Positions 27,409 to 63,153 of a DNA stretch of 63,424 nucleotides are shown in pieces. This DNA comes from a bacterium (GTDB lineage: Bacteria > Bacillota_I > Bacilli_A > Erysipelotrichales > Erysipelotrichaceae): NCBI GenBank assembly GCA_963605225.1, contig CAVCUC010000001.1, forward strand, positions 1 to 63,424. Direction: 5' to 3'. Under the pieces are notes generated by a model, which made no database searches, was not told where the DNA came from, and worked only from the letters and a program-made list of their open reading frames with translations. How positions within the stretch are numbered: the first letter of the stretch is position 1; each line of letters starts with the position of its first letter. Made by a program: the position numbers and the translations under genes.

Positions 27409-27946
27409 TTAATTAATCGAAATAAATTCAGATTCAACAGAAGGAATTACTCCCTCTATCCATTGATTCAAGAAAAATCATTTTCCTTAGAAAATTCATT
27501 AATCAAATTATGACCGTGCTTTATTTCTATTTCTTCCGAAAATGCAGTATTGTTTTTTTTAATAGATATCTTTATTTTCTAAGTGAAATATAATTGCTCT
27601 TGTCACCCACATTTCATAGTTTTTATTAGAAATCGTTACTTTTTGGTGTTCATTTACCAAAGTGATTTTTCTTATTTTTTCATCAACCGGTGTATCAATT
27701 TGTTTTACATTTTCAAAAAATAAATGAATATCGTTTTGCCCAACTTTTTTAAATGTCCATAAAGCAACATCGTCAATTGAATCAAAATATAATATTGATT
27801 TTTGCTCATTTAAAAGTCCATAAATCAATAATCCCTGGCCCACTACTTGTATATTCAAATGGATCACAACGATATTTTTTGAAAAGTTTTCCAATTAATG
27901 GCTTAAACTTTGATTCTTCTAATCTAAAATCTTGTGCATTGCTCAT
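27409..27946 (-). pseudogene. Frameshifted hypothetical protein, possible orphan immunity gene
   Basis: RBS plus ATG at 27946 gives MSNAQDFRLEESKFKPLIGKLFKKYRCDPFEYTSS. Coding-like sequence continues in the 27559..27894 frame, then in shifted frames as NTAFSEEIEIKHGHNLINEF and NQWIEGVIPSVESEFISIN* ending at 27409. Confidence 0.65.
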
Positions 27947-28066: not shown

Positions 28067-28600
28067 TCAGTTAATGATAATGGATAGTTTTTTACCGTCA
28101 AATGGATTTCCCCAACCATTTTTTTCTGTAAATTTAGAGAATGAAACGGCAGTAGGATCTGGCAATTCAATATTATTGTCTTTAAGGATTTTGGCAGCAG
28201 AACAAACCAGTTTAATACTTTCTTTTCCTTCCTCAGGTATAGACATATAAGAATATACCATTGCGATTTTCGTAGGGATAACCATTAATTTTTCCATATT
28301 TTTATCAATATCCTTCAAAAAATCAGAATAATAATTGTAATCTTGTTCTGAAAGATATTCAAACTGTGCGTCTTTATAGTTATCAAACTCATATAAATAT
28401 TCCGGAAGAATCTCCATGAATCGATAATACCATTCATCAAAATAGTCGGAAGTACATTTCCACATCCATGTAAATAAAGGTTTCCAATTCTTTTCCGGAT
28501 ATTTTGCTAGTGCATATCTTTCAGCACACATGATTGTATACGCAATTCTTCCACTTAAAGAAATATCTGAAAAATCAAAATTCATTTTAGATAACATCAT
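28067..28600 (-). CDS. Putative immunity protein for the upstream deaminase toxin
   Basis: Acidic/aromatic 177-aa soluble protein. Its ATG overlaps the toxin stop (ATGA). Function is inferred from position. Confidence 0.6.
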   Translation of the reverse strand: MMLSKMNFDFSDISLSGRIAYTIMCAERYALAKYPEKNWKPLFTWMWKCTSDYFDEWYYRFMEILPEYLYEFDNYKDAQFEYLSEQDYNYYSDFLKDIDKNMEKLMVIPTKIAMVYSYMSIPEEGKESIKLVCSAAKILKDNNIELPDPTAVSFSKFTEKNGWGNPFDGKKLSIIIN

Positions 28601-29103
28601 TTTTTACCATCCTTCCATCCCGTATAGTTTTCTTTAATTTTTCCTCTTAGAGTAAAGGTACAATTTTCACACGCTTCTTTCGGTTTCCCAAAATCGCGTT
28701 TTGTTGTATGAATTGTATACAACTTTAGATTTTTCAAATCAGCTCCATCGTTTAGAGCTTTATTAACAGCGTGCATTTCGGCACAATTACCAAGTGAGAG
28801 TCTATTTAAAGATTCTTTCGGCAATAAACCCGGGTGTATATTATCTCCAAAAAGAACTGTATTTTTCTCTTCGTGATCAATTTCAATACCGTGGTTACGC
28901 CCATTATAATACTTTCCAGTACTTTCATCATAGACAACCGTGGCAGTATTGAACTTTTCACGTTGTCTTTTAGAGATTTTGTTCAAATGCTCAGCCGTAT
29001 CCCTTGCCCAAGAAGTTATATGAGATTGCATTTGCTTTGAGGACCCTTTATATATCCTCTCGCCCTTTGTACCTAGAAATAACCCACTATATCCCTTACT
29101 CAT
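28597..29103 (-). CDS. YwqJ-like nucleic-acid deaminase toxin domain with a short Gly-rich leader
   Basis: Zn-deaminase motifs GNCAEMHAVNKAL and ACENC (CxE...CxxC); N-terminus MSKGYSGLFLGTKG. Confidence 0.78.
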   Translation of the reverse strand: MSKGYSGLFLGTKGERIYKGSSKQMQSHITSWARDTAEHLNKISKRQREKFNTATVVYDESTGKYYNGRNHGIEIDHEEKNTVLFGDNIHPGLLPKESLNRLSLGNCAEMHAVNKALNDGADLKNLKLYTIHTTKRDFGKPKEACENCTFTLRGKIKENYTGWKDGKK

Positions 29104-29821
29104 GATTTAGCCTTTCTTCATAAGCAATAGCTGTACGACTTTTGTAATCGACAATATTAATTCCTTTCTCTCGAAGAACATCAAATATAGGATAATTTGC
29201 AGAGCCATATACAAGAATGGTATGTGGATAAAGATAATCAACCATTGCTAAAATTCCCTCTTCAAAACGATTTCTATCGACCAGTTTTCTAGGGCTACCG
29301 CCGACGGTTCCTATTGCAATAACACTGTTTTTATCAATTCCATCGAAGCTATATGAATAAGTGTTTGAATAACCCCAACGGACATTATTTACAACTTCAA
29401 GTCCATTCTTTCCAATCCAATAACCAAACGCACGCATACGATATGTATTAAAACGATTAATCGGATCAGGAAAATCAACATATGTAGAATAATCAACAGT
29501 TATAATTCCTTTAAAATGTTTCAATATTTGCATAGCTCTTTTTGGGTGCCACCAAACACCAGAAACTAATCCATCAAATTTATAGTCATCAATATAGAAA
29601 CAAACAAACGCGTCCACATAGAAATCCTTTCTTTTACGGATTTTCTTTGCATATATCGTTTTTGCTTCCTCCCAAGTAATAATTTTCCTTGGAATAGAGC
29701 TGAGTATAGTCGGACAATAAGGAATATCATTTTCTTTAGAGAAAATCGCTCCATCGACCATTGTTGAATTCCATAAATCTTTCAGTCCAACACGAATCAA
29801 AGTATTGTTTTTGTTTTTCAT
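29096..29821 (-). CDS. DUF4417-family protein
   Basis: FYIDDYKF, DYSTYVDFP, NTYR, NNVRWG, SFDG, AIGTVG, ILVYG. RBS AGGAGG upstream. Confidence 0.85.
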   Translation of the reverse strand: MKNKNNTLIRVGLKDLWNSTMVDGAIFSKENDIPYCPTILSSIPRKIITWEEAKTIYAKKIRKRKDFYVDAFVCFYIDDYKFDGLVSGVWWHPKRAMQILKHFKGIITVDYSTYVDFPDPINRFNTYRMRAFGYWIGKNGLEVVNNVRWGYSNTYSYSFDGIDKNSVIAIGTVGGSPRKLVDRNRFEEGILAMVDYLYPHTILVYGSANYPIFDVLREKGINIVDYKSRTAIAYEERLNHE

Positions 29822-29850
29822 AGTTTATCATCCTCCTTTTAAACAAAAAC

Positions 29851-29863
29851 TTTATCCATTAGT
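29851..29863 (+). repeat. 13-bp direct repeat, left copy
   Basis: TTTATCCATTAGT, with an identical copy at 31764-31776. Confidence 0.6.
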
Positions 29864-29948
29864 TTTACGATTGGGAGAAGAAGTCTCTAGATGGTAAAAT
29901 TAAAATGGATTTTTACAATGTCAGTCTATTAAGAAAGCTGCGTTCTTA

Positions 29949-29990
29949 CATTGGCGCAACATTGCGAAAATATTGCAAAACATTGCAAAA
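29949..29990 (+). repeat. Helically phased short direct repeats upstream of the macrodomain gene
   Basis: CATTGGCGCAA CATTGCGAAAA TATTGCAAAA CATTGCAAAA; ATTG cores at 29950, 29961, 29972 and 29982. Confidence 0.7.
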
Positions 29991-30003
29991 AGGAGAAATA
30001 TTA

Positions 30004-31125
30004 TTGAACTACGGAAATTTTCTGAAAAGACTAAAACCCTACTGTATAAATAAATCAATAAAAAATGAAACACTTGTTAATGAACCGATAGCAATTATCA
30101 TAGAAAACGCCAGGTTAAAAAAAGAAAAAGGAACATCTAAAGGTGAAACATTTTATTATGAAACAACTGAAGCAAGTAGGATTATTAATAACCGGTTAGA
30201 ACTATCTGATAAAATTAGAAATGCTTTGGAGCTGTATAATATGGAAGAATGTATCATAAAAGAATTTGATGCATTTTATGATACGTATATAAATAAAAGT
30301 AAAGTTCATGATATGGTCGATGAGTATCTAAAAGCCATACGAAATGATTCATCTTTTCAAAAACATGAACTTGAAGATATCGAATGTTGTATAACAAAAC
30401 CAAGCTTGTTTATGGCAAAGATACTTATTAAATCTTTGAAAGAACCAAATTATATAGATAACTCTGAATATTCAACCATTTGGTCATGCAGTAATCGTTG
30501 TATCAATGTAATAAATGGAGATATTTTCACTTATGCTCTTGGAAGGCGTAGGAGAAAAAAGCGCATTGTTGTCATTCCGGTAAATACATCCTTTGATACT
30601 CATGTAACTACTAAATTAGAAAAAGAAGCAAATCCGTTAGTTTCTATCAATACTCTTCACGGAAAACTTCTGATACGGTTGTCCAAAAAAGGTTTATCAG
30701 AAGCCGAAGTTATTGAAAGAGTCAAAAATAATCTTTTGATTAATAATCTTATTTCTGAGAACAGTCAAAATTTAGCTTTACCTATAGGAACAATAGCCAC
30801 TCTAGATTTCGATGAAGCAATATTTTATTTATTAGCTATCTCAAAATTTGACGAAAACAATAATGCGCATAGTTCAAAAGAAGACATTCGAAATGCAATT
30901 CAAAATTTGATTGTTTATTATGATCAAAAAGGACAAGGATATGATTTATATCTCCCTCTCATTGGAACCGGAATGTCCAGAGCAAATTTAAGCTATCAGG
31001 AATCGTATAATCTAATCGTCAGCATCTTTTTAGAAAACAAAGATAGAATATCCGGCAAGATAAATATTGTAATTCAGCCAGAAGTAGAAGTTGTTAAAAA
31101 TCAAATTTTAGAAAGGAATAAATAA
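30004..31125 (+). CDS. Thoeris ThsA-type macrodomain (DUF6430-like) protein with a soluble N-terminal domain
   Basis: C-terminal half has INVINGDIF, VVIPVNTSFDT, TLHG, PIGTIA, FYLLAISKFD and LPLIGTGMSR. The first ~150 aa contain no hydrophobic helix. Probable start TTG 30004, 8 nt after AGGAG (ORF track start 29905). Confidence 0.8.
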   Translation: MNYGNFLKRLKPYCINKSIKNETLVNEPIAIIIENARLKKEKGTSKGETFYYETTEASRIINNRLELSDKIRNALELYNMEECIIKEFDAFYDTYINKSKVHDMVDEYLKAIRNDSSFQKHELEDIECCITKPSLFMAKILIKSLKEPNYIDNSEYSTIWSCSNRCINVINGDIFTYALGRRRRKKRIVVIPVNTSFDTHVTTKLEKEANPLVSINTLHGKLLIRLSKKGLSEAEVIERVKNNLLINNLISENSQNLALPIGTIATLDFDEAIFYLLAISKFDENNNAHSSKEDIRNAIQNLIVYYDQKGQGYDLYLPLIGTGMSRANLSYQESYNLIVSIFLENKDRISGKINIVIQPEVEVVKNQILERNK

Positions 31126-31128
31126 TAT

Positions 31129-31647
31129 ATGGGTTATTACAGAACAAGAATATATCTTGCTGCGGACTGGGATAGTGATAAAGAAGTAATCAATAAATTG
31201 AGAGAATGGAATAATAGCAACTTTTGGAATTTGAATTTTTCTGACGCTCATGATTTGACTCAATCATCAGATAACAGTTTGAATTGCACAATAAAATCTT
31301 CTCTTTCTGATAGAATGAATGCATCCAAAACGTTTGTTCTCGTTATTGGGCGAAAAACTAAGAACTTGCAATCTGGGAATTGTTACCTTTGCAGTTGGTA
31401 TAGTATACACCATCAAACATGCTTAAAAAGATTCTCAATAAGCAATAAAAGTTATATTGAATACGAATGCGATAAGGCTATTAGGGATGGGCTGAAAATA
31501 ATTGTATTATATAATTATTCTTATGTTGATAGAACTAAATGCCCTGATGCCGTAAAATACAAAGGAAAACATATTGCCGCTTACCATTGGGATAACTTTA
31601 TAAAAAAATGGAATTATTCTGAAATCAGAGATGCCATAATGTATTGA
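31129..31647 (+). CDS. Thoeris ThsB-like TIR-domain protein
   Basis: YLAADWD, FSDAHD, RMNASKTFVLVIG, SYIEYE (putative catalytic Glu), IIVLYN; starts 3 nt after the macrodomain gene. Confidence 0.82.
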   Translation: MGYYRTRIYLAADWDSDKEVINKLREWNNSNFWNLNFSDAHDLTQSSDNSLNCTIKSSLSDRMNASKTFVLVIGRKTKNLQSGNCYLCSWYSIHHQTCLKRFSISNKSYIEYECDKAIRDGLKIIVLYNYSYVDRTKCPDAVKYKGKHIAAYHWDNFIKKWNYSEIRDAIMY

Positions 31648-33599: not shown

Positions 33600-34076
33600 C
33601 TATTTATGATATGGTTCATTTCTTCTAATACGATATGCGCGATAAATTTGTTCAATTAAGATTAATCGACAAAGTTGATGCGGAAATGTATTTTCAGATA
33701 ATTTCCATCTAAAGTTTGCACGAGAAATTAAGCCATCTGATACACCAAGAGATCCACCAATCACAAATGTAATCTTACTTTTACCACTTGTATTGAGTTC
33801 ATCCATCTTGTTTGCAAGTTCTACTGAACCTAGTTCTTTCCCTTTCAAGTCTAATAAGATGACATATTCATCATCTTTAATCTTTTTTAGAATCTTTTCA
33901 CCTTCTGTTTGTTTAATCTTATTCACAATTGCACTTGGTGCTTCATCAGGTGTTTTTTCATCATCTACTTCTATGATTTCTATCTTTTCATAAGCAGTAA
34001 TTCTTTTGAAATATTCTTGTATACCATCTTTTAGCCATTTTTCTTTTATATGCCCACAAGCAACAATCTTAATCAT
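33600..34076 (-). CDS. rlmH: 23S rRNA pseudouridine-1915 N3-methyltransferase
   Basis: FVIGGSLG, TFPHQL, EQIYRA, EPYHK. Confidence 0.97.
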   Translation of the reverse strand: MIKIVACGHIKEKWLKDGIQEYFKRITAYEKIEIIEVDDEKTPDEAPSAIVNKIKQTEGEKILKKIKDDEYVILLDLKGKELGSVELANKMDELNTSGKSKITFVIGGSLGVSDGLISRANFRWKLSENTFPHQLCRLILIEQIYRAYRIRRNEPYHK

Positions 34077-44541: not shown

Positions 44542-45693
44542 ATGAAAATACTCCGTATCACTGCACAAGGACTTCCATTATTCAAAAAAGACCTAGATAT
44601 TTACTTTTATACACAACAACGAGTTTCAAAAGAAGATAAAGATAGTCTTTATCATTTAAAAGACAACTACTATCTGCACTCTGCTTGTGCTTTCATTGGC
44701 ATTAATGCGTCTGGTAAAACTTCTGTTTTAAAAGTCATCAGTTTAGCCTTAAATATTATCAAAAATGAGCCTATCAATCATATAGAAGCAAGAACTATTC
44801 TTTCTAATGCAAAGAAAGCTACAATTCGTACATATTTTTACGACAAACGCAATTATGTATGCTGTTTAGAAACTGTAATTACAGCAAATAAAACAAAAAC
44901 AGGTGAATATGTATATTCAATTTTATCTGAACACATTTGGGAAAAACCAATTTCCACCATTAAGTCAAAAAAGAATCTAACTGATTTTGTAGGAATAAAA
45001 CCTGTAGCTGAGCGTAACAAAGATGAAGCATATCTTCCTGATGATGTTAGCTTTATCATTGCACATAATAAAAAAATGAATGATACAGTAGAATTATTTA
45101 GCTTATTATCTTATACGAATGTAAATGTGCTTCCTTTTACAGAGGATATCCCACTAGAAGTTATAACTTTCCTTGATCCTACCATTGATAAATTGTCTTT
45201 TGAACAAATGGAAGGAAAAACATTCATCCATTTAAAATTCAAAGAGGAAGAAGAAATAATCCTAAATAATGCGTCAGACCTTGAGCAATATTTGTCATCT
45301 GGCACAATTAAAGGAATTATTACATTCTCTATGGTAAAAGAAGTTCTTCAATCGGGCGGTTATCTTCTAGTAGATGAAATTGAAAATCATTTCAATAAAG
45401 AAATAGTAACAACTCTAGTTCGTTTCTTTATGGATAGTAAACTAAATAAAAATGGTGGAACACTTGTTTTCACCACTCACTACCCTGAGCTACTAGATGA
45501 ATATGATCGTAACGATGGAATTTATATCATCCGGAATAGAAATGGCATTACAGCAGAAAATTTAAGTTGCATATTAAAACGTAATGACATCAAGAAAAGT
45601 GACGCTTATCAAAGTGGATTTCTTGAAGGAACAACACCCGCATATGAAGCTTATATGCGCTTAAAGAAAAACTTAATCTCTTCAATCGATTAA
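44542..45693 (+). CDS. ABC-type (AAA_21-like) ATPase, AbiLi/RloA-like, putative defence protein
   Basis: Walker A GINASGKT, signature LSSGT, Walker B LLVDEIENH, H-loop FTTH; no permease partner. Confidence 0.8.
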   Translation: MKILRITAQGLPLFKKDLDIYFYTQQRVSKEDKDSLYHLKDNYYLHSACAFIGINASGKTSVLKVISLALNIIKNEPINHIEARTILSNAKKATIRTYFYDKRNYVCCLETVITANKTKTGEYVYSILSEHIWEKPISTIKSKKNLTDFVGIKPVAERNKDEAYLPDDVSFIIAHNKKMNDTVELFSLLSYTNVNVLPFTEDIPLEVITFLDPTIDKLSFEQMEGKTFIHLKFKEEEEIILNNASDLEQYLSSGTIKGIITFSMVKEVLQSGGYLLVDEIENHFNKEIVTTLVRFFMDSKLNKNGGTLVFTTHYPELLDEYDRNDGIYIIRNRNGITAENLSCILKRNDIKKSDAYQSGFLEGTTPAYEAYMRLKKNLISSID

Positions 45694-45705
45694 GGAGCTA
45701 GCAAA

Positions 45706-46224
45706 ATGAAATTAGCGAAATATAAAGCATGTATATGCGAAGGTTCTGCAGAAGAAGCGATTATTGATATCTTAGTTGATAATAATCTTTTGATTTTCAC
45801 TAGAGAAGAAATGCTAGAAGAATGCGTAATACGTTGTCGAAATGCCAAAAGATTTGAAGAACGATTCTTAAGAAAAGGATTCGATGATCAGATTTCAATT
45901 ATACGAGTTTTAGATTCCCGAAGAGAAGAATTTCGGTTAAGTAAAGCCTACAAGTATAAAGTTGATGTAATCAATGTCATTACTGCCCCAGAAATTGAAA
46001 TGTTAATCATTCATGCAGAAGGTGCATATCATCAATTTAAAAATTCTGGAATGAAGCCTAGTGATTTCTGCAAATCTAATCTTTCTATGCATGATGTAAA
46101 ATCATATGAATTTGTTAAAAATTATTTCAATAACCCTGCAACATTAGTGAATGCTATAAAAGAATATCGTAGAACTGCAAATATTCCTAAAGGAGAATAT
46201 TGTTTGTCGGATTTATTGAAATAA
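45706..46224 (+). CDS. TOPRIM-like partner protein, AbiLii/RloB-like
   Basis: CICEGSAE, VLDS and TAPEIE acidic motifs; 12 nt downstream of the ATPase, with its own RBS. Confidence 0.6.
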   Translation: MKLAKYKACICEGSAEEAIIDILVDNNLLIFTREEMLEECVIRCRNAKRFEERFLRKGFDDQISIIRVLDSRREEFRLSKAYKYKVDVINVITAPEIEMLIIHAEGAYHQFKNSGMKPSDFCKSNLSMHDVKSYEFVKNYFNNPATLVNAIKEYRRTANIPKGEYCLSDLLK

Positions 46225-60315: not shown

Positions 60316-61893
60316 ATGAGTACACATCTAACTAAATTTGTATATAAAGTAACGAGTATTCTATCTTTTATGATATTTGGAATACTCCTTTATTTTGCAT
60401 TTACTGAGACAGGTACAATTAACTATGATATGAATGAATACAATTATTTTGTTAAAGATAATTTGTGTTTAAACCTTTTATTACTTGTCTTATTAATCTA
60501 TTTCATTCATAAAATCGCAATTATTTTATGCAAGTTTCGTATAAGACATTTAATGATCCTGTTCATGTCATTGATCACAATCCTATTAGTTTATTTAATT
60601 GCACATGTAAATTTAAAACCAACATGGGATAGTGCTAGAACCATTCAAGCTGCTGTAGGACTCATTCATCATGACTATTCAATGTTTACTTATGGTCATT
60701 ATATTTCACAATATCCATTTCAAGTTCCATTAGTACTTTATTATGCATTTTTCATTAAACTATTTGGTGAAAACTATATTATCTTACAATTTATGAATAT
60801 CTTCTTTTTGTTATGGACATATTTCTTCATCATCAAAATATCGTTCTTGATTAGTCATAACAAAGTAGTAACAATCACAACACTATTATTAATTGTTACA
60901 TTTATCCCCTTACAAATGTATGTAATGTTTTTATACTCTAATATTCCTTCTTTATTTTGTATGACTGCTGGGATATATTTCTTTTTATGCCACTATCAAA
61001 ATCATGAATACAAAAATATTGTCATCTCTTTTATATTTTTATGCTTAGCCACATTATTTAAAGGAACAGCATATATTGTCGTCATTGCGGTAATCATCAT
61101 GTATGTATTAGAACTATTACATTCATTCAACATAAAAAAGACGCTACTCATTATCATTTCTACACTAGTTCTACTCATTACACCTACACAAATAAACAAT
61201 GCTGTCTCGATGCTTGATCCTTCTATTTCTTTATCCAGCACTGCTTATAAAGAAATAGCCTTAGTTATGGGTACATCATATGGGCCTAGAGGAGCTGGTT
61301 GGCACAATGGTTGGTATGAGCCAAAGCTATATAAAATGTATGGGAATGACATTCAAGCAATGAAAAAAGATGGTCAAAAACGTACTATGAATAATTTAAA
61401 AGAATTAGTTCAAGACAATAAACTATTATCTTTTTATCATGATAAGGTATGTTCAATGTATATTAATCCTGATTATCAAGGATTTTGGACAATTGTCGCA
61501 AATAAAACTCAACAATTTGGTAAAGGAAGTCACTCAAAACAATCTTTTTTATTCATCAAATATAATCCTAGGAAAGATCGTTATTCTCATTTTACGCGTT
61601 CCTTTATGACAGGAAAAATTAATCGAGTCATCATTGCCTATGAAAATATTTTGATGAATGCCATTTATCTAGGTTGTGTATGCTTTATCTTCTTTAATCG
61701 TAAGCGCATGACAAAAGAAAAGATATTTATCCCTATGATATTTGTAGGTTGTTTCTTATTCTTTTTGGCTTGGGAAGCGAAAGCACAATATAGTGTATTA
61801 TTTTATGTATTACTCTTTCCTATAGCAGCTGAAGGATTAACTTGTTTATCATCATTATTCAAAAATGATATTTTCAATAGCGTAAAGCGGTAA
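60316..61893 (+). CDS. Polytopic membrane protein, probable GT-C (GT39/PMT-like) glycosyltransferase
   Basis: Many transmembrane helices, PTWD, YISQYPFQ, YSNIPSL, WEAKAQY. Confidence 0.65.
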   Translation: MSTHLTKFVYKVTSILSFMIFGILLYFAFTETGTINYDMNEYNYFVKDNLCLNLLLLVLLIYFIHKIAIILCKFRIRHLMILFMSLITILLVYLIAHVNLKPTWDSARTIQAAVGLIHHDYSMFTYGHYISQYPFQVPLVLYYAFFIKLFGENYIILQFMNIFFLLWTYFFIIKISFLISHNKVVTITTLLLIVTFIPLQMYVMFLYSNIPSLFCMTAGIYFFLCHYQNHEYKNIVISFIFLCLATLFKGTAYIVVIAVIIMYVLELLHSFNIKKTLLIIISTLVLLITPTQINNAVSMLDPSISLSSTAYKEIALVMGTSYGPRGAGWHNGWYEPKLYKMYGNDIQAMKKDGQKRTMNNLKELVQDNKLLSFYHDKVCSMYINPDYQGFWTIVANKTQQFGKGSHSKQSFLFIKYNPRKDRYSHFTRSFMTGKINRVIIAYENILMNAIYLGCVCFIFFNRKRMTKEKIFIPMIFVGCFLFFLAWEAKAQYSVLFYVLLFPIAAEGLTCLSSLFKNDIFNSVKR

Positions 61894-63153
61894 ATTTAAA
61901 AGCCAATCTTCTTTTTTGTAGTCACTCATAGAAGTGCGAATCGATAATTCAGGGTTATATTTTTCACGATATGTTTTAAGACTTTTCGCTTTAAGATTTG
62001 TTTCAGCTTTCACTTCAACTGGAACAATCTTTTCACCTGTATCCACAACAAAATCTATTTCACAAGTTCCTCTGTCATTTGTGTAATAATAAACCCCTAA
62101 ATCCTCTATTGTTTTTAACTGTTGGCAAACATATTGTTCCGTTAAAGCTCCTTTGAATTCGATAAAAAGGTCATTACCTTCAATTAATGTGCTTTGTCGA
62201 AGTCCTACCATACAGCTAAGTAAGCCAACATCTACAATAAATAGTTTGAATGCTTTTAGATCTTCATAAGCTTTTAGTGGAATACCTGCCGCATTTACAC
62301 GACTTACTTTGTGTACAAGACCACAATCTGAAAGCCACATAATTGCTGTTTCATAATCTCTAGCTCTACCACCTTCACGCACAAGACCATAAACAAATTT
62401 TTTATTTTCTTTAGCAAGTTGCGATGGAATACTATTCCACACCATACGAAGTTTTGGGACAATTTCATTAGGTGCATGTTTTGAAAAATCCTGTTCATAT
62501 GCAGTAAGAATTCTTTTTTGAATCTCACGAACTACATTGAAATCTTTGTTTTCCGCAAAATTTAAAACTGCTTCTGGCATACCACCAACAAAATAGTAAA
62601 GTTTCAGTGCTTCTATATATGTTTGTTTGAACTTAGTAATCATTTCATAATCTTGACTTTTCAAAAGTTCCGCAAAGCGTTCATTACCAGTAGCCATTAA
62701 AAATTCGCTAAAAGAAAGAGGATAAAGCTTTAAGAAATCAACTTTACCTACAGGAAATGATGTGCCTTGATGTAACGCAATTCCTAATAAAGAACCAGCA
62801 CATACAATATGATACTGTGGAGCATTTTCATAAAAATATTTAAGTGAAGTAAGAGCTCTAGGCACTTCTTGAACTTCATCAAAAATAAGTAAAGTATTAT
62901 CAGGATTTATTTTTTTGCCAGAATATAGCTCAATTCCTAAAATTAAACGTTCTGTATCTAAATCAGTTGCAAATAAATCAGCCATCTTTGAATTTGAATC
63001 AAAGTTTATATATATCGTATTTTCATAAGCTTGTTCACCAAACTCTTTCATTAACCAAGTTTTACCAACTTGTCGTGCTCCTTCAATAATTAGAGGTTTA
63101 CGATACTTGCTAGTTTTCCATTTATATAATTTTTCAATTGCACTTCGATACAT
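61855..63153 (-). CDS. AAA_14 ATPase with DUF4143 (PD-(D/E)xK-like) C-terminus
   Basis: GARQVGKT, IFDEVQ, GGMPE, EIDFVV...PVEVKA. Confidence 0.9.
   Translation of the reverse strand: MYRSAIEKLYKWKTSKYRKPLIIEGARQVGKTWLMKEFGEQAYENTIYINFDSNSKMADLFATDLDTERLILGIELYSGKKINPDNTLLIFDEVQEVPRALTSLKYFYENAPQYHIVCAGSLLGIALHQGTSFPVGKVDFLKLYPLSFSEFLMATGNERFAELLKSQDYEMITKFKQTYIEALKLYYFVGGMPEAVLNFAENKDFNVVREIQKRILTAYEQDFSKHAPNEIVPKLRMVWNSIPSQLAKENKKFVYGLVREGGRARDYETAIMWLSDCGLVHKVSRVNAAGIPLKAYEDLKAFKLFIVDVGLLSCMVGLRQSTLIEGNDLFIEFKGALTEQYVCQQLKTIEDLGVYYYTNDRGTCEIDFVVDTGEKIVPVEVKAETNLKAKSLKTYREKYNPELSIRTSMSDYKKEDWLLNLPLYAIENIIFE

Follow-up and report, generated by a model that had tools for sequence, protein, structure and literature searches.

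The question raised by a stretch of 63,424 nucleotides from an Erysipelotrichaceae genome (GenBank assembly GCA_963605225.1, contig CAVCUC010000001.1, positions 1 to 63,424; hereafter the window) is whether two divergently transcribed gene arms at 28067..31647 form a single system. On the plus strand a gene for a macrodomain protein, in which a soluble N-terminal domain (NTD) takes the place of the membrane helices of the Thoeris protein ThsA, is followed by a gene for a TIR protein; on the minus strand lie genes for a DUF4417 protein, a deaminase toxin and a putative immunity protein. A sequence-only reading of this DNA had proposed that a signal made by the TIR protein switches the macrodomain protein, which would then control the toxin operon, and had named two independent cargo modules in one hotspot as the alternative. 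Comparison of gene neighbourhoods and sequences indicates that the five genes are one real, conserved cassette, and here we weigh how its two arms may work together.

Loci were collected by searches with the macrodomain protein, identical copies were merged and an upstream flank of at least 1 kb was required. With the window included, a downstream TIR gene and a divergent DUF4417 gene accompany 18 of 20 NTD-macro copies, whereas macrodomain genes without the NTD never carry the divergent arm (0/17 with enough flank, 0/21 overall). Both non-linked copies belong to one rearranged tandem array (L036), and for a 21st NTD-macro copy (L018) the contig stops at a divergent start codon. Pairwise identity is as low as 28% among the NTD-macro proteins and 42% among the DUF4417 proteins, and the two sets of identities co-vary (Spearman 0.71 over 136 non-independent pairs). 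A tree that includes 17 of the linked DUF4417 proteins puts all of them in one 20-row clade with support 97/97. The hosts are Bacilli and Clostridia and the insertion sites are unrelated, with neighbours that include genes for recombinases, relaxases, coupling proteins or restriction as well as housekeeping genes, and orientation and short spacer are constant throughout. Scans of viral contigs returned one macro-only locus and nothing else, and a plasmid scan returned one macro-only match.

That the two arms are independent modules sharing an insertion hotspot by chance would fit with the DUF4417-toxin-immunity triplets being common without macro-TIR genes (72 loci), two more of them in the same genome (contigs C5 and C67). 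It is at odds with the constant layout across unrelated sites in two bacterial classes, with the single DUF4417 clade and co-varying identities, and with the lack of the arm at other macrodomain genes. Since the divergent arrangement is kept in 18/20 against 0/17 cases, this alternative, and with it chance co-location, is largely excluded by the sequence comparison, and we regard it as very improbable. The linkage, as far as the trees and neighbourhoods tell, is one old coupling rather than many independent ones, yet not chance.

Two rearranged relatives are of note. The tandem array (L036:1761-13061) holds four deaminase-immunity pairs, three TIR genes and two NTD-macro genes, one of them broken, without DUF4417; the deaminase-immunity pairs are interleaved with the TIR and NTD-macro copies and all four toxins lack the N-terminal tag described below. 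The same genome (G657) also has a complete cassette within a type I restriction locus (L088/L157). At L028:664-1978 a deleted cassette is found, in which a macrodomain fragment abuts a 5'-truncated DUF4417 gene.

In the window the five open reading frames are uninterrupted and tightly coupled within each arm, as the sequence-only reading had stated. The genes for the DUF4417 protein (29096..29821, minus strand, 241 amino acids (aa)), the toxin (28597..29103, minus strand, 168 aa) and the immunity protein (28067..28600, minus strand, 177 aa) overlap by 8 and 4 base pairs (bp), respectively, and 3 bp separate the macrodomain gene (NTD at 30004..30453 and macrodomain at 30454..31125, plus strand) from the TIR gene (31129..31647, plus strand, 172 aa). 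Pfam matches above cut-off are YwqJ-deaminase, DUF4417, ThsA_Macro and ThsB_TIR. The macrodomain frame is open from ATG 29905, which would give a protein of 406 aa. This longer version was rejected: homology starts only at TTG 30004 in all 14 aligned sequences, this TTG is preceded by an AAGGAG ribosome site, and in L016 a 1-bp indel breaks the frame upstream of the start. The homology onset together with the broken frame of L016 yields the shared intergenic control region of 182 bp (29822..30003) that had been proposed.

By Pfam (PF20016) and PADLOC (ThsA) the macrodomain is a member of the type II Thoeris family, and it is the predicted receptor of an ADP-ribose-derived signal. The best Foldseek matches of the full-length model are ThsA macrodomain structures (8R66, 8V6Q and 8V6R); the macrodomain of that model is poor (predicted local distance difference test score, pLDDT, of 66), and structure searches with it probed the macrodomain part only. 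The TIR protein matches Pfam ThsB_TIR and PADLOC ThsB (E 5e-71), has a Cys-rich insert and is approximately 50% identical to TIR proteins adjoining transmembrane-type (TM-type) ThsA (L012). Its Glu113 is invariant in 15/15 aligned sequences and is, by the TIR motif, the putative catalytic residue. Three of the six ligand contacts named for solved ThsA (10.1101/2024.01.03.573942) are kept: D173, S280 and R326 correspond to ThsA D100, S194 and R240, of which R240 binds the histidine of histidine-ADP-ribose (His-ADPR), and all three are at least 90% conserved across 66 sequences. This mapping was taken from a HMMER alignment to 8R66, with the offset fixed on the GD motif. ThsA macrodomains are known to form ligand-induced linear oligomers with their N-termini on one side (PMC11204291).

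What precedes the macrodomain differs from ThsA. No membrane helix is found in the NTD, a helical domain of approximately 150 aa whose maximum 19-residue hydropathy is 0.95, which bears out the earlier claim that the Thoeris-like arm has no recognisable killing domain. Among the best 150 representatives at 50% identity, 79 carry the NTD and 35 are TM-type, defined by a hydropathy of at least 1.9; 78 of the 79 NTD-type representatives stay below that value. The gene neighbourhoods compared above cover the smaller part of these NTD-type representatives. A quick tree of 41 macrodomains, made of the window's, 22 of the 79 NTD-type and 18 of the 35 TM-type sequences, places the TM-type rows in a clade of their own (Shimodaira-Hasegawa (SH) support 95) with the window's macrodomain outside. 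The NTD on its own gives a confident model (pLDDT 92). Aligned by hhalign with Xre regulators it obtains P 6e-4 and a probability of 29%, and its score of 22.5 exceeds those of all 40 column shuffles (maximum 14.8). The alignment is collinear at helix 1 and the recognition helix, with an insertion of approximately 22 residues before the latter. From this comparison we predict that the NTD is an Xre-like DNA-binding domain with an insertion.

A candidate target of such a domain lies next to the gene itself. Three phased direct repeats, a predicted operator, occupy 29957..29991 on the plus strand and reach the ribosome site; their ATTGC cores lie at 29961, 29972 and 29982 and are thus spaced by 11 and then 10 bp (TTGC cores likewise), an arrangement that confirms the phased repeats reported earlier (p=0.002 against 400 shuffles). 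A generic repeat finder did not place them among its top families. When three 7-mers 10 or 11 bp apart were sought within 75 bp of the start, they were present in 16/19 upstream regions of NTD-macro genes, in 2/8 of other NTD-like genes and in 0/40 controls, the latter consisting of 6 TM-ThsA, 10 Xre-slot, 12 DUF4417 and 12 housekeeping genes. This 10/11 rule was picked after seeing the data; an earlier test that allowed a lag of 11 only was weaker (9/19) because the spacing is 11 and then 10. No other block of the spacer is conserved as well as the repeats: in one clade they hold most of the invariant spacer columns and in the other they contain a solid invariant block. The repeat sequence differs between the two clades (TTGC-type and GTTTTGA-type) together with the putative recognition helix, a co-variation confounded by descent. 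The one-turn spacing fits an oligomer binding one face of the DNA. A promoter-like site with an extended -10 element (29871..29900, plus strand), called by consensus match only, is a candidate for the macro-TIR arm; the -10 motif is also present in the upstream regions of L016, L017, L018, L030, L031 and L039, and promoter consensus matches across the control region are fewer than in shuffled versions of it.

Other DUF4417 loci show what else can stand in the position of the NTD-macro and TIR genes. DUF4417-driven searches gave 72 distinct loci without NTD-macro. Directly upstream of DUF4417 these have an Xre and ImmA/IrrE pair in 25 cases, weak ImmA only in 2, RloA/B-type genes in 8, a divergent Xre fusion in 2, something else in 30 (prophage types included) and too little flank in 5. 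The Xre and ImmA profiles used were built from these same loci, and Pfam confirmed two ImmA (Peptidase_M78) and one HTH_3. The two divergent fusions (L045 and L046) are HTH_3 proteins in the NTD-macro/TIR position; their DUF4417 proteins nest in the linked clade, and the deaminase and immunity families of the window are retained. Since, besides the window and the search centre, only L135 was met as an NTD-macro locus by these searches, NTD-macro is a rare occupant of the slot. The frequent presence of a stress-sensing regulator in this slot is the strongest indirect hint that NTD-macro with TIR is a regulator of this sort as well.

Further arrangements were seen at this position. In the genome of the window (G000) two additional triplets of DUF4417, tagged gene and partner lie behind an Xre and ImmA-like pair (C5:1111-3782 and C67:8-2510). 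RloA/RloB-type genes are directly upstream of DUF4417-toxin-immunity triplets in L049, L051, L071, L072, L111, L112, L114 and L152. The arm is divergent from a helical protein of 528 aa of no known kind at L161:3022-6399, and from two such proteins of 116 and 231 aa at L159:1953-4776, where short upstream repeats and a split DUF4417 are found.

The slot also bears on what the trigger might be. Transcriptional wiring could respond to general stress or DNA damage and serve competition or maintenance of the element rather than defence against phages. The commonest alternative regulator, Xre/ImmA, resembles the DNA-damage-activated CapH+CapP (PMC13373217), conflict between cells typically leaves orphan immunity genes and exchanged toxins, and some cassettes adjoin relaxase, coupling-protein or recombinase genes (L031, L034 and L016). 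However, the TIR and macrodomains belong to Thoeris families, the TIR protein is as close as stated above to those beside TM-type ThsA, and other copies are surrounded by restriction or AbiE genes (L157, L017 and L155). We consider a stress trigger distinctly unlikely.

The toxin arm itself consists of a constant and an exchangeable part. The DUF4417 protein (Pfam PF14386, E 4e-35) is followed by a YwqJ-like deaminase (Pfam PF14431, 27.4 bits against a cut-off of 25.9), whose motifs C107-A-E109 and C145xxC148 are intact and invariant in 14/14 aligned sequences. The toxin begins with the tag MSKGxSGLFxGT, approximately 12 residues that stay constant while the toxin domain varies, and the tag type tracks the DUF4417 clade, being of MSK-type here and of MGAG- or MGGRG-type elsewhere. 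NTD-macro cassettes have two deaminase subtypes, Tox-GHH, AHH or a PBECR1-like domain, of which YwqJ, Tox-GHH and AHH score above cut-off and PBECR1 below it; LHH and EndoU are found behind DUF4417 at other loci. The downstream gene changes with the toxin, unrelated partner genes accompanying other toxins. In the window its product has no Pfam match above cut-off, and the proteins that accompany the same deaminase elsewhere share 62% (L045) and 36% (L089/L155) identity with it; from position and co-variation it is a putative immunity protein.

Two functional claims had been attached to this arm. Phage hypermutation as a general purpose was rejected as unlikely, because nuclease-type toxins replace the deaminase in four cassettes (L022, L031, L088 and L091). 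The toxin had also been described as lacking a recognisable export carrier: the 168 aa are made up of tag and deaminase only, and neither Pfam, NCBIfam nor PHROGs gave a trafficking family, so that this part stands for known export domains, but the conserved tag qualifies it. DUF4417 likely reads or modifies that tag. A predicted complex of DUF4417 and deaminase reached 0.46 against 0.00 for the best control, with a contact agreement between runs of at least 88% and a partner pLDDT of at least 87; the mark is reached by 116/157 solved and 2/215 mismatched pairs, and values up to 0.60 comprise only 18 of the solved pairs and both mismatches, hence the model lends the complex weak support. Matches of DUF4417 in the ESM Atlas are DUF4417 clusters only. 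The family was found in 26/301 and 34/300 of the genomes sampled (prophage types included). At prophage-like loci DUF4417 precedes a tagged small protein and genes read as terminase subunits, and some prophage-like members have an N-terminal extension read as ParB-like (for a ParB fusion see 10.1101/2025.10.10.680097). In L107, L108, L109, L111, L114 and L115 the MGAG/MGGG-tagged proteins have a hydrophobic, pre-toxin-like segment after the tag, and L107 has a second tagged cassette downstream.

The reading that we favour is that a TIR signal leads to binding and oligomerisation of the macrodomain protein, that the NTD then acts on the repeats, and that transcription of the tagged-toxin arm follows; we hold the chances of this chain to be about even. 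By analogy with Thoeris, infection would activate the TIR protein, which would make an ADP-ribose-derived, His-ADPR-like alarm signal. Binding by the macrodomain would drive the change from dimer to oligomer known for ThsA macrodomains, and the oligomer would align its N-termini on one side, suiting three DNA sites on the same face. A shift in repeat occupancy would alter transcription of the macro-TIR arm itself and of the toxin arm. DUF4417 would then engage the toxin via the tag and activate, modify or load it, the outcome being nucleic acid damage, either in the infected cell itself or in a subsequent recipient.

A number of observations weigh against this chain. No repeats are present in L089 and L036, and those of L088 are of borderline significance (p=0.057). 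The repeats abut the macrodomain gene and lie 140-170 bp from the DUF4417 start, hence control of the far, toxin arm is something we infer; autoregulation alone could explain them, and no clear minus-strand promoter was called within the spacer. The 18 of 20 linked copies do not amount to 18 independent events, since the linked loci share one ancestral coupling; within the clade L104 and L134 have no adjacent NTD-macro or Xre, and L136 has a different divergent gene. In the ligand pocket three of the six residues differ (N133 to H219, Q135 to K221 and Y277 to Q358). As to DNA binding, in the NTD-Xre test an unrelated TIR alignment came to 19.2, not far below the 22.5 of the NTD, a first comparison gave a probability of 3%, and a Pfam HTH_3-type match was found in 0/66 NTD members. 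A fold search of the NTD model (VIA wide) gave no clear match, with a best Z of 4.0, and Foldseek against PDB and viral sets gave nothing at E<=0.001. Moreover the same NTD is found in the effector position of Lamassu LmuA (L081, L098 and L102) and fused to HamA (L099). The claim of a TIR-switched regulator of the toxin arm therefore keeps circumstantial support from the phased repeats, the regulator slot and the modest Xre similarity, and is weakened by the position of the repeats at the macrodomain end.

The missing fold match is an absence of match, not proof of a new fold. Scattered CARD-like matches near Z 3 are at noise level, sequence searches of PDB with the NTD and with DUF4417 gave chance-level matches only, and the NTD matches in the ESM Atlas are below 0.8, one of them being an ABC-three-component CTD6 cluster. 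Across Firmicutes the NTD heads LmuA-type, HamA and ATPase-like proteins (L081, L098, L100, L102, L099 and L082), and no Pfam family covers it; the LmuA/HamA-type loci have no DUF4417 within 1.5 kb and mostly no repeats. At L158:4255-6279 an NTD fused to a domain of no known kind is divergent from DUF6883 and DUF4926 genes, without DUF4417.

Since the NTD is also the N-terminus of LmuA and HamA, an effector role stays alive. The macro-TIR pair could be a self-sufficient Thoeris variant in which the NTD itself is the effector, toxic when oligomerised, for instance as a coat on DNA or as an adaptor, with the toxin arm a long-term companion under separate control. The NTD stands where ThsA has its killing domain; in LmuA it occupies the effector slot and in HamA the N-terminus, and its fold matches no solved regulator. 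Such a variant leaves unexplained why NTD-macro is hardly ever found apart from the toxin arm, why the repeats track the NTD-macro gene, and why the toxin-immunity pairs of L036 remain interleaved with TIR and NTD-macro genes after rearrangement. We judge it unlikely.

Toxin and immunity gene share one operon, and this also counts against our favoured chain in its simplest form: co-transcribed immunity would blunt killing by induction alone. Abortive infection, as it had been proposed, is thus doubtful if it means simple induction. A further step is needed, probably DUF4417 with the tag, or action in another cell. The same operon structure, in which induction alone need not kill, is compatible with one system coupled at the protein level, the repeats, set against the ribosome site of the macrodomain gene, serving autoregulation only, and signal-bound NTD-macro, or the signal itself, releasing the toxin from the immunity protein or activating DUF4417. 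Yet NTD-macro stays in place when toxins and immunity proteins are exchanged for others of unrelated fold, so that only DUF4417 or the tag could be the constant contact, and ordinary transcription regulators occupy the same slot elsewhere. Protein-level coupling therefore appears rather improbable to us.

A more far-reaching version of the transcriptional chain, for which we see little probability, is that the TIR alarm is turned into transcription of a phage-derived protein-loading system, in which DUF4417 would put the tagged toxin, by attachment or loading, onto DNA or onto progeny virions that the infected cell makes. The target of the toxin would be the next cell or the genome of the phage, and the immunity gene would protect carriers, an extension to which we give equally little credence. 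If true, it would link Thoeris signalling to a transcription factor of a new, signal-gated kind and to a so far unrecognised way of delivering polymorphic toxins, and would explain the co-induction of toxin and immunity as well as the build-up of orphan immunity genes.

In comparison with known systems the cassette resembles type II Thoeris (TM-macro ThsA/ThsC with TIR ThsB and His-ADPR; 10.1101/2024.01.03.573942, PMC11204291) in its macrodomain and TIR families, in gene order and in the adenine-binding Asp and histidine-binding Arg of the macrodomain. It differs by its soluble NTD without membrane helices and by the fixed linkage to a divergent toxin operon, and it is not a member of type II Thoeris because the membrane effector is absent. 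The effectors in the Thoeris literature examined kill directly, as NADase, pore, protease or other enzymes. The closest precedent for how the cassette may work is Csa3, a CARF protein with a winged helix-turn-helix (HTH) that binds cyclic tetra-adenylate (cA4; PMC8844856), likewise an immune second-messenger receptor with a DNA-binding domain. Signal, receptor fold and target differ; in the cassette the signal enzyme is encoded in the same operon, the proposed target is the toxin operon and DNA binding is putative. CapH+CapP, CapW/BrxR and CapK+CapS (PMC13373217) share with it a regulator gene adjoining the immune operon that is controlled, and Xre/ImmA pairs similar to CapH/CapP fill the same slot at other DUF4417 loci; those regulators respond to single-stranded DNA, whereas that of the cassette would respond to a TIR-made nucleotide. 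The comparison also draws on PMC9503650 and 10.1101/2025.04.02.646746.

The toxin arm shares with polymorphic toxin systems the interchangeable toxin domains after a constant N-terminus, a co-varying immunity gene and orphan immunity remnants. Phage MuF toxins likewise have interchangeable toxin domains behind a constant N-terminus. The cassette lacks a known trafficking domain, and its constant part is the 12-residue tag, of a type that goes with the DUF4417 clade encoded upstream. The homologous NTD is combined with different sensor modules in Lamassu LmuA and Hachiman HamA. In the tagging by type IV CBASS Cap10 and QatBC (10.1101/2025.04.06.647259) an accessory protein recognises the partner's N-terminus, as would DUF4417, but the cassette has no QueC-like gene, its tag starts Met-Ser-Lys and not Met-Gly, and the partner is a toxin. 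In the main text of a TIR survey with 29 effector types (10.64898/2025.12.03.692087) the words deaminase, DUF4417, transcription and HTH do not occur; its Figure 1 or Table S1 may nevertheless list this architecture and so bear on novelty. In the literature searched, whose coverage excludes most subscription journals, we met neither the NTD-macro architecture, nor DUF4417-toxin triplets, nor the proposed wiring of a TIR-signal receptor to toxin transcription.

The surroundings of the cassette had been described as a decayed island. Decay is limited to one frameshifted orphan immunity-like gene (27415..27946, minus strand), matched in three pieces, with 62% identity over 91 aa to the partner in L059; members of its family are found behind other toxins linked to DUF4417. 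We rejected a decayed island of large extent, as the genes on either side, a sugar-uptake cluster and housekeeping genes, are intact. A DNA search of relatives gave no match to the cassette among the matches listed (287 further matches were unlisted). The gene rlmH (33600-34076), which is a hotspot of integration, is 2 kb away from the cassette, two intact genes separating them, and no link was established. A plus-strand gene pair that is RloA/RloB-like by eye (44542-46224) and an AAA ATPase close to the window end (61855-63153) are possible extra defence or mobile cargo.

The locus exposes a widespread family of DUF4417-tagged toxin-immunity genes and offers a small, testable handle on DUF4417 function. 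If the transcriptional reading is true, a receptor that turns a TIR signal into gene expression would be a new output layer of bacterial nucleotide immunity, with a logic closer to that of plant and animal TIR pathways, and would provide a genetically encoded reporter for His-ADPR-like signals.

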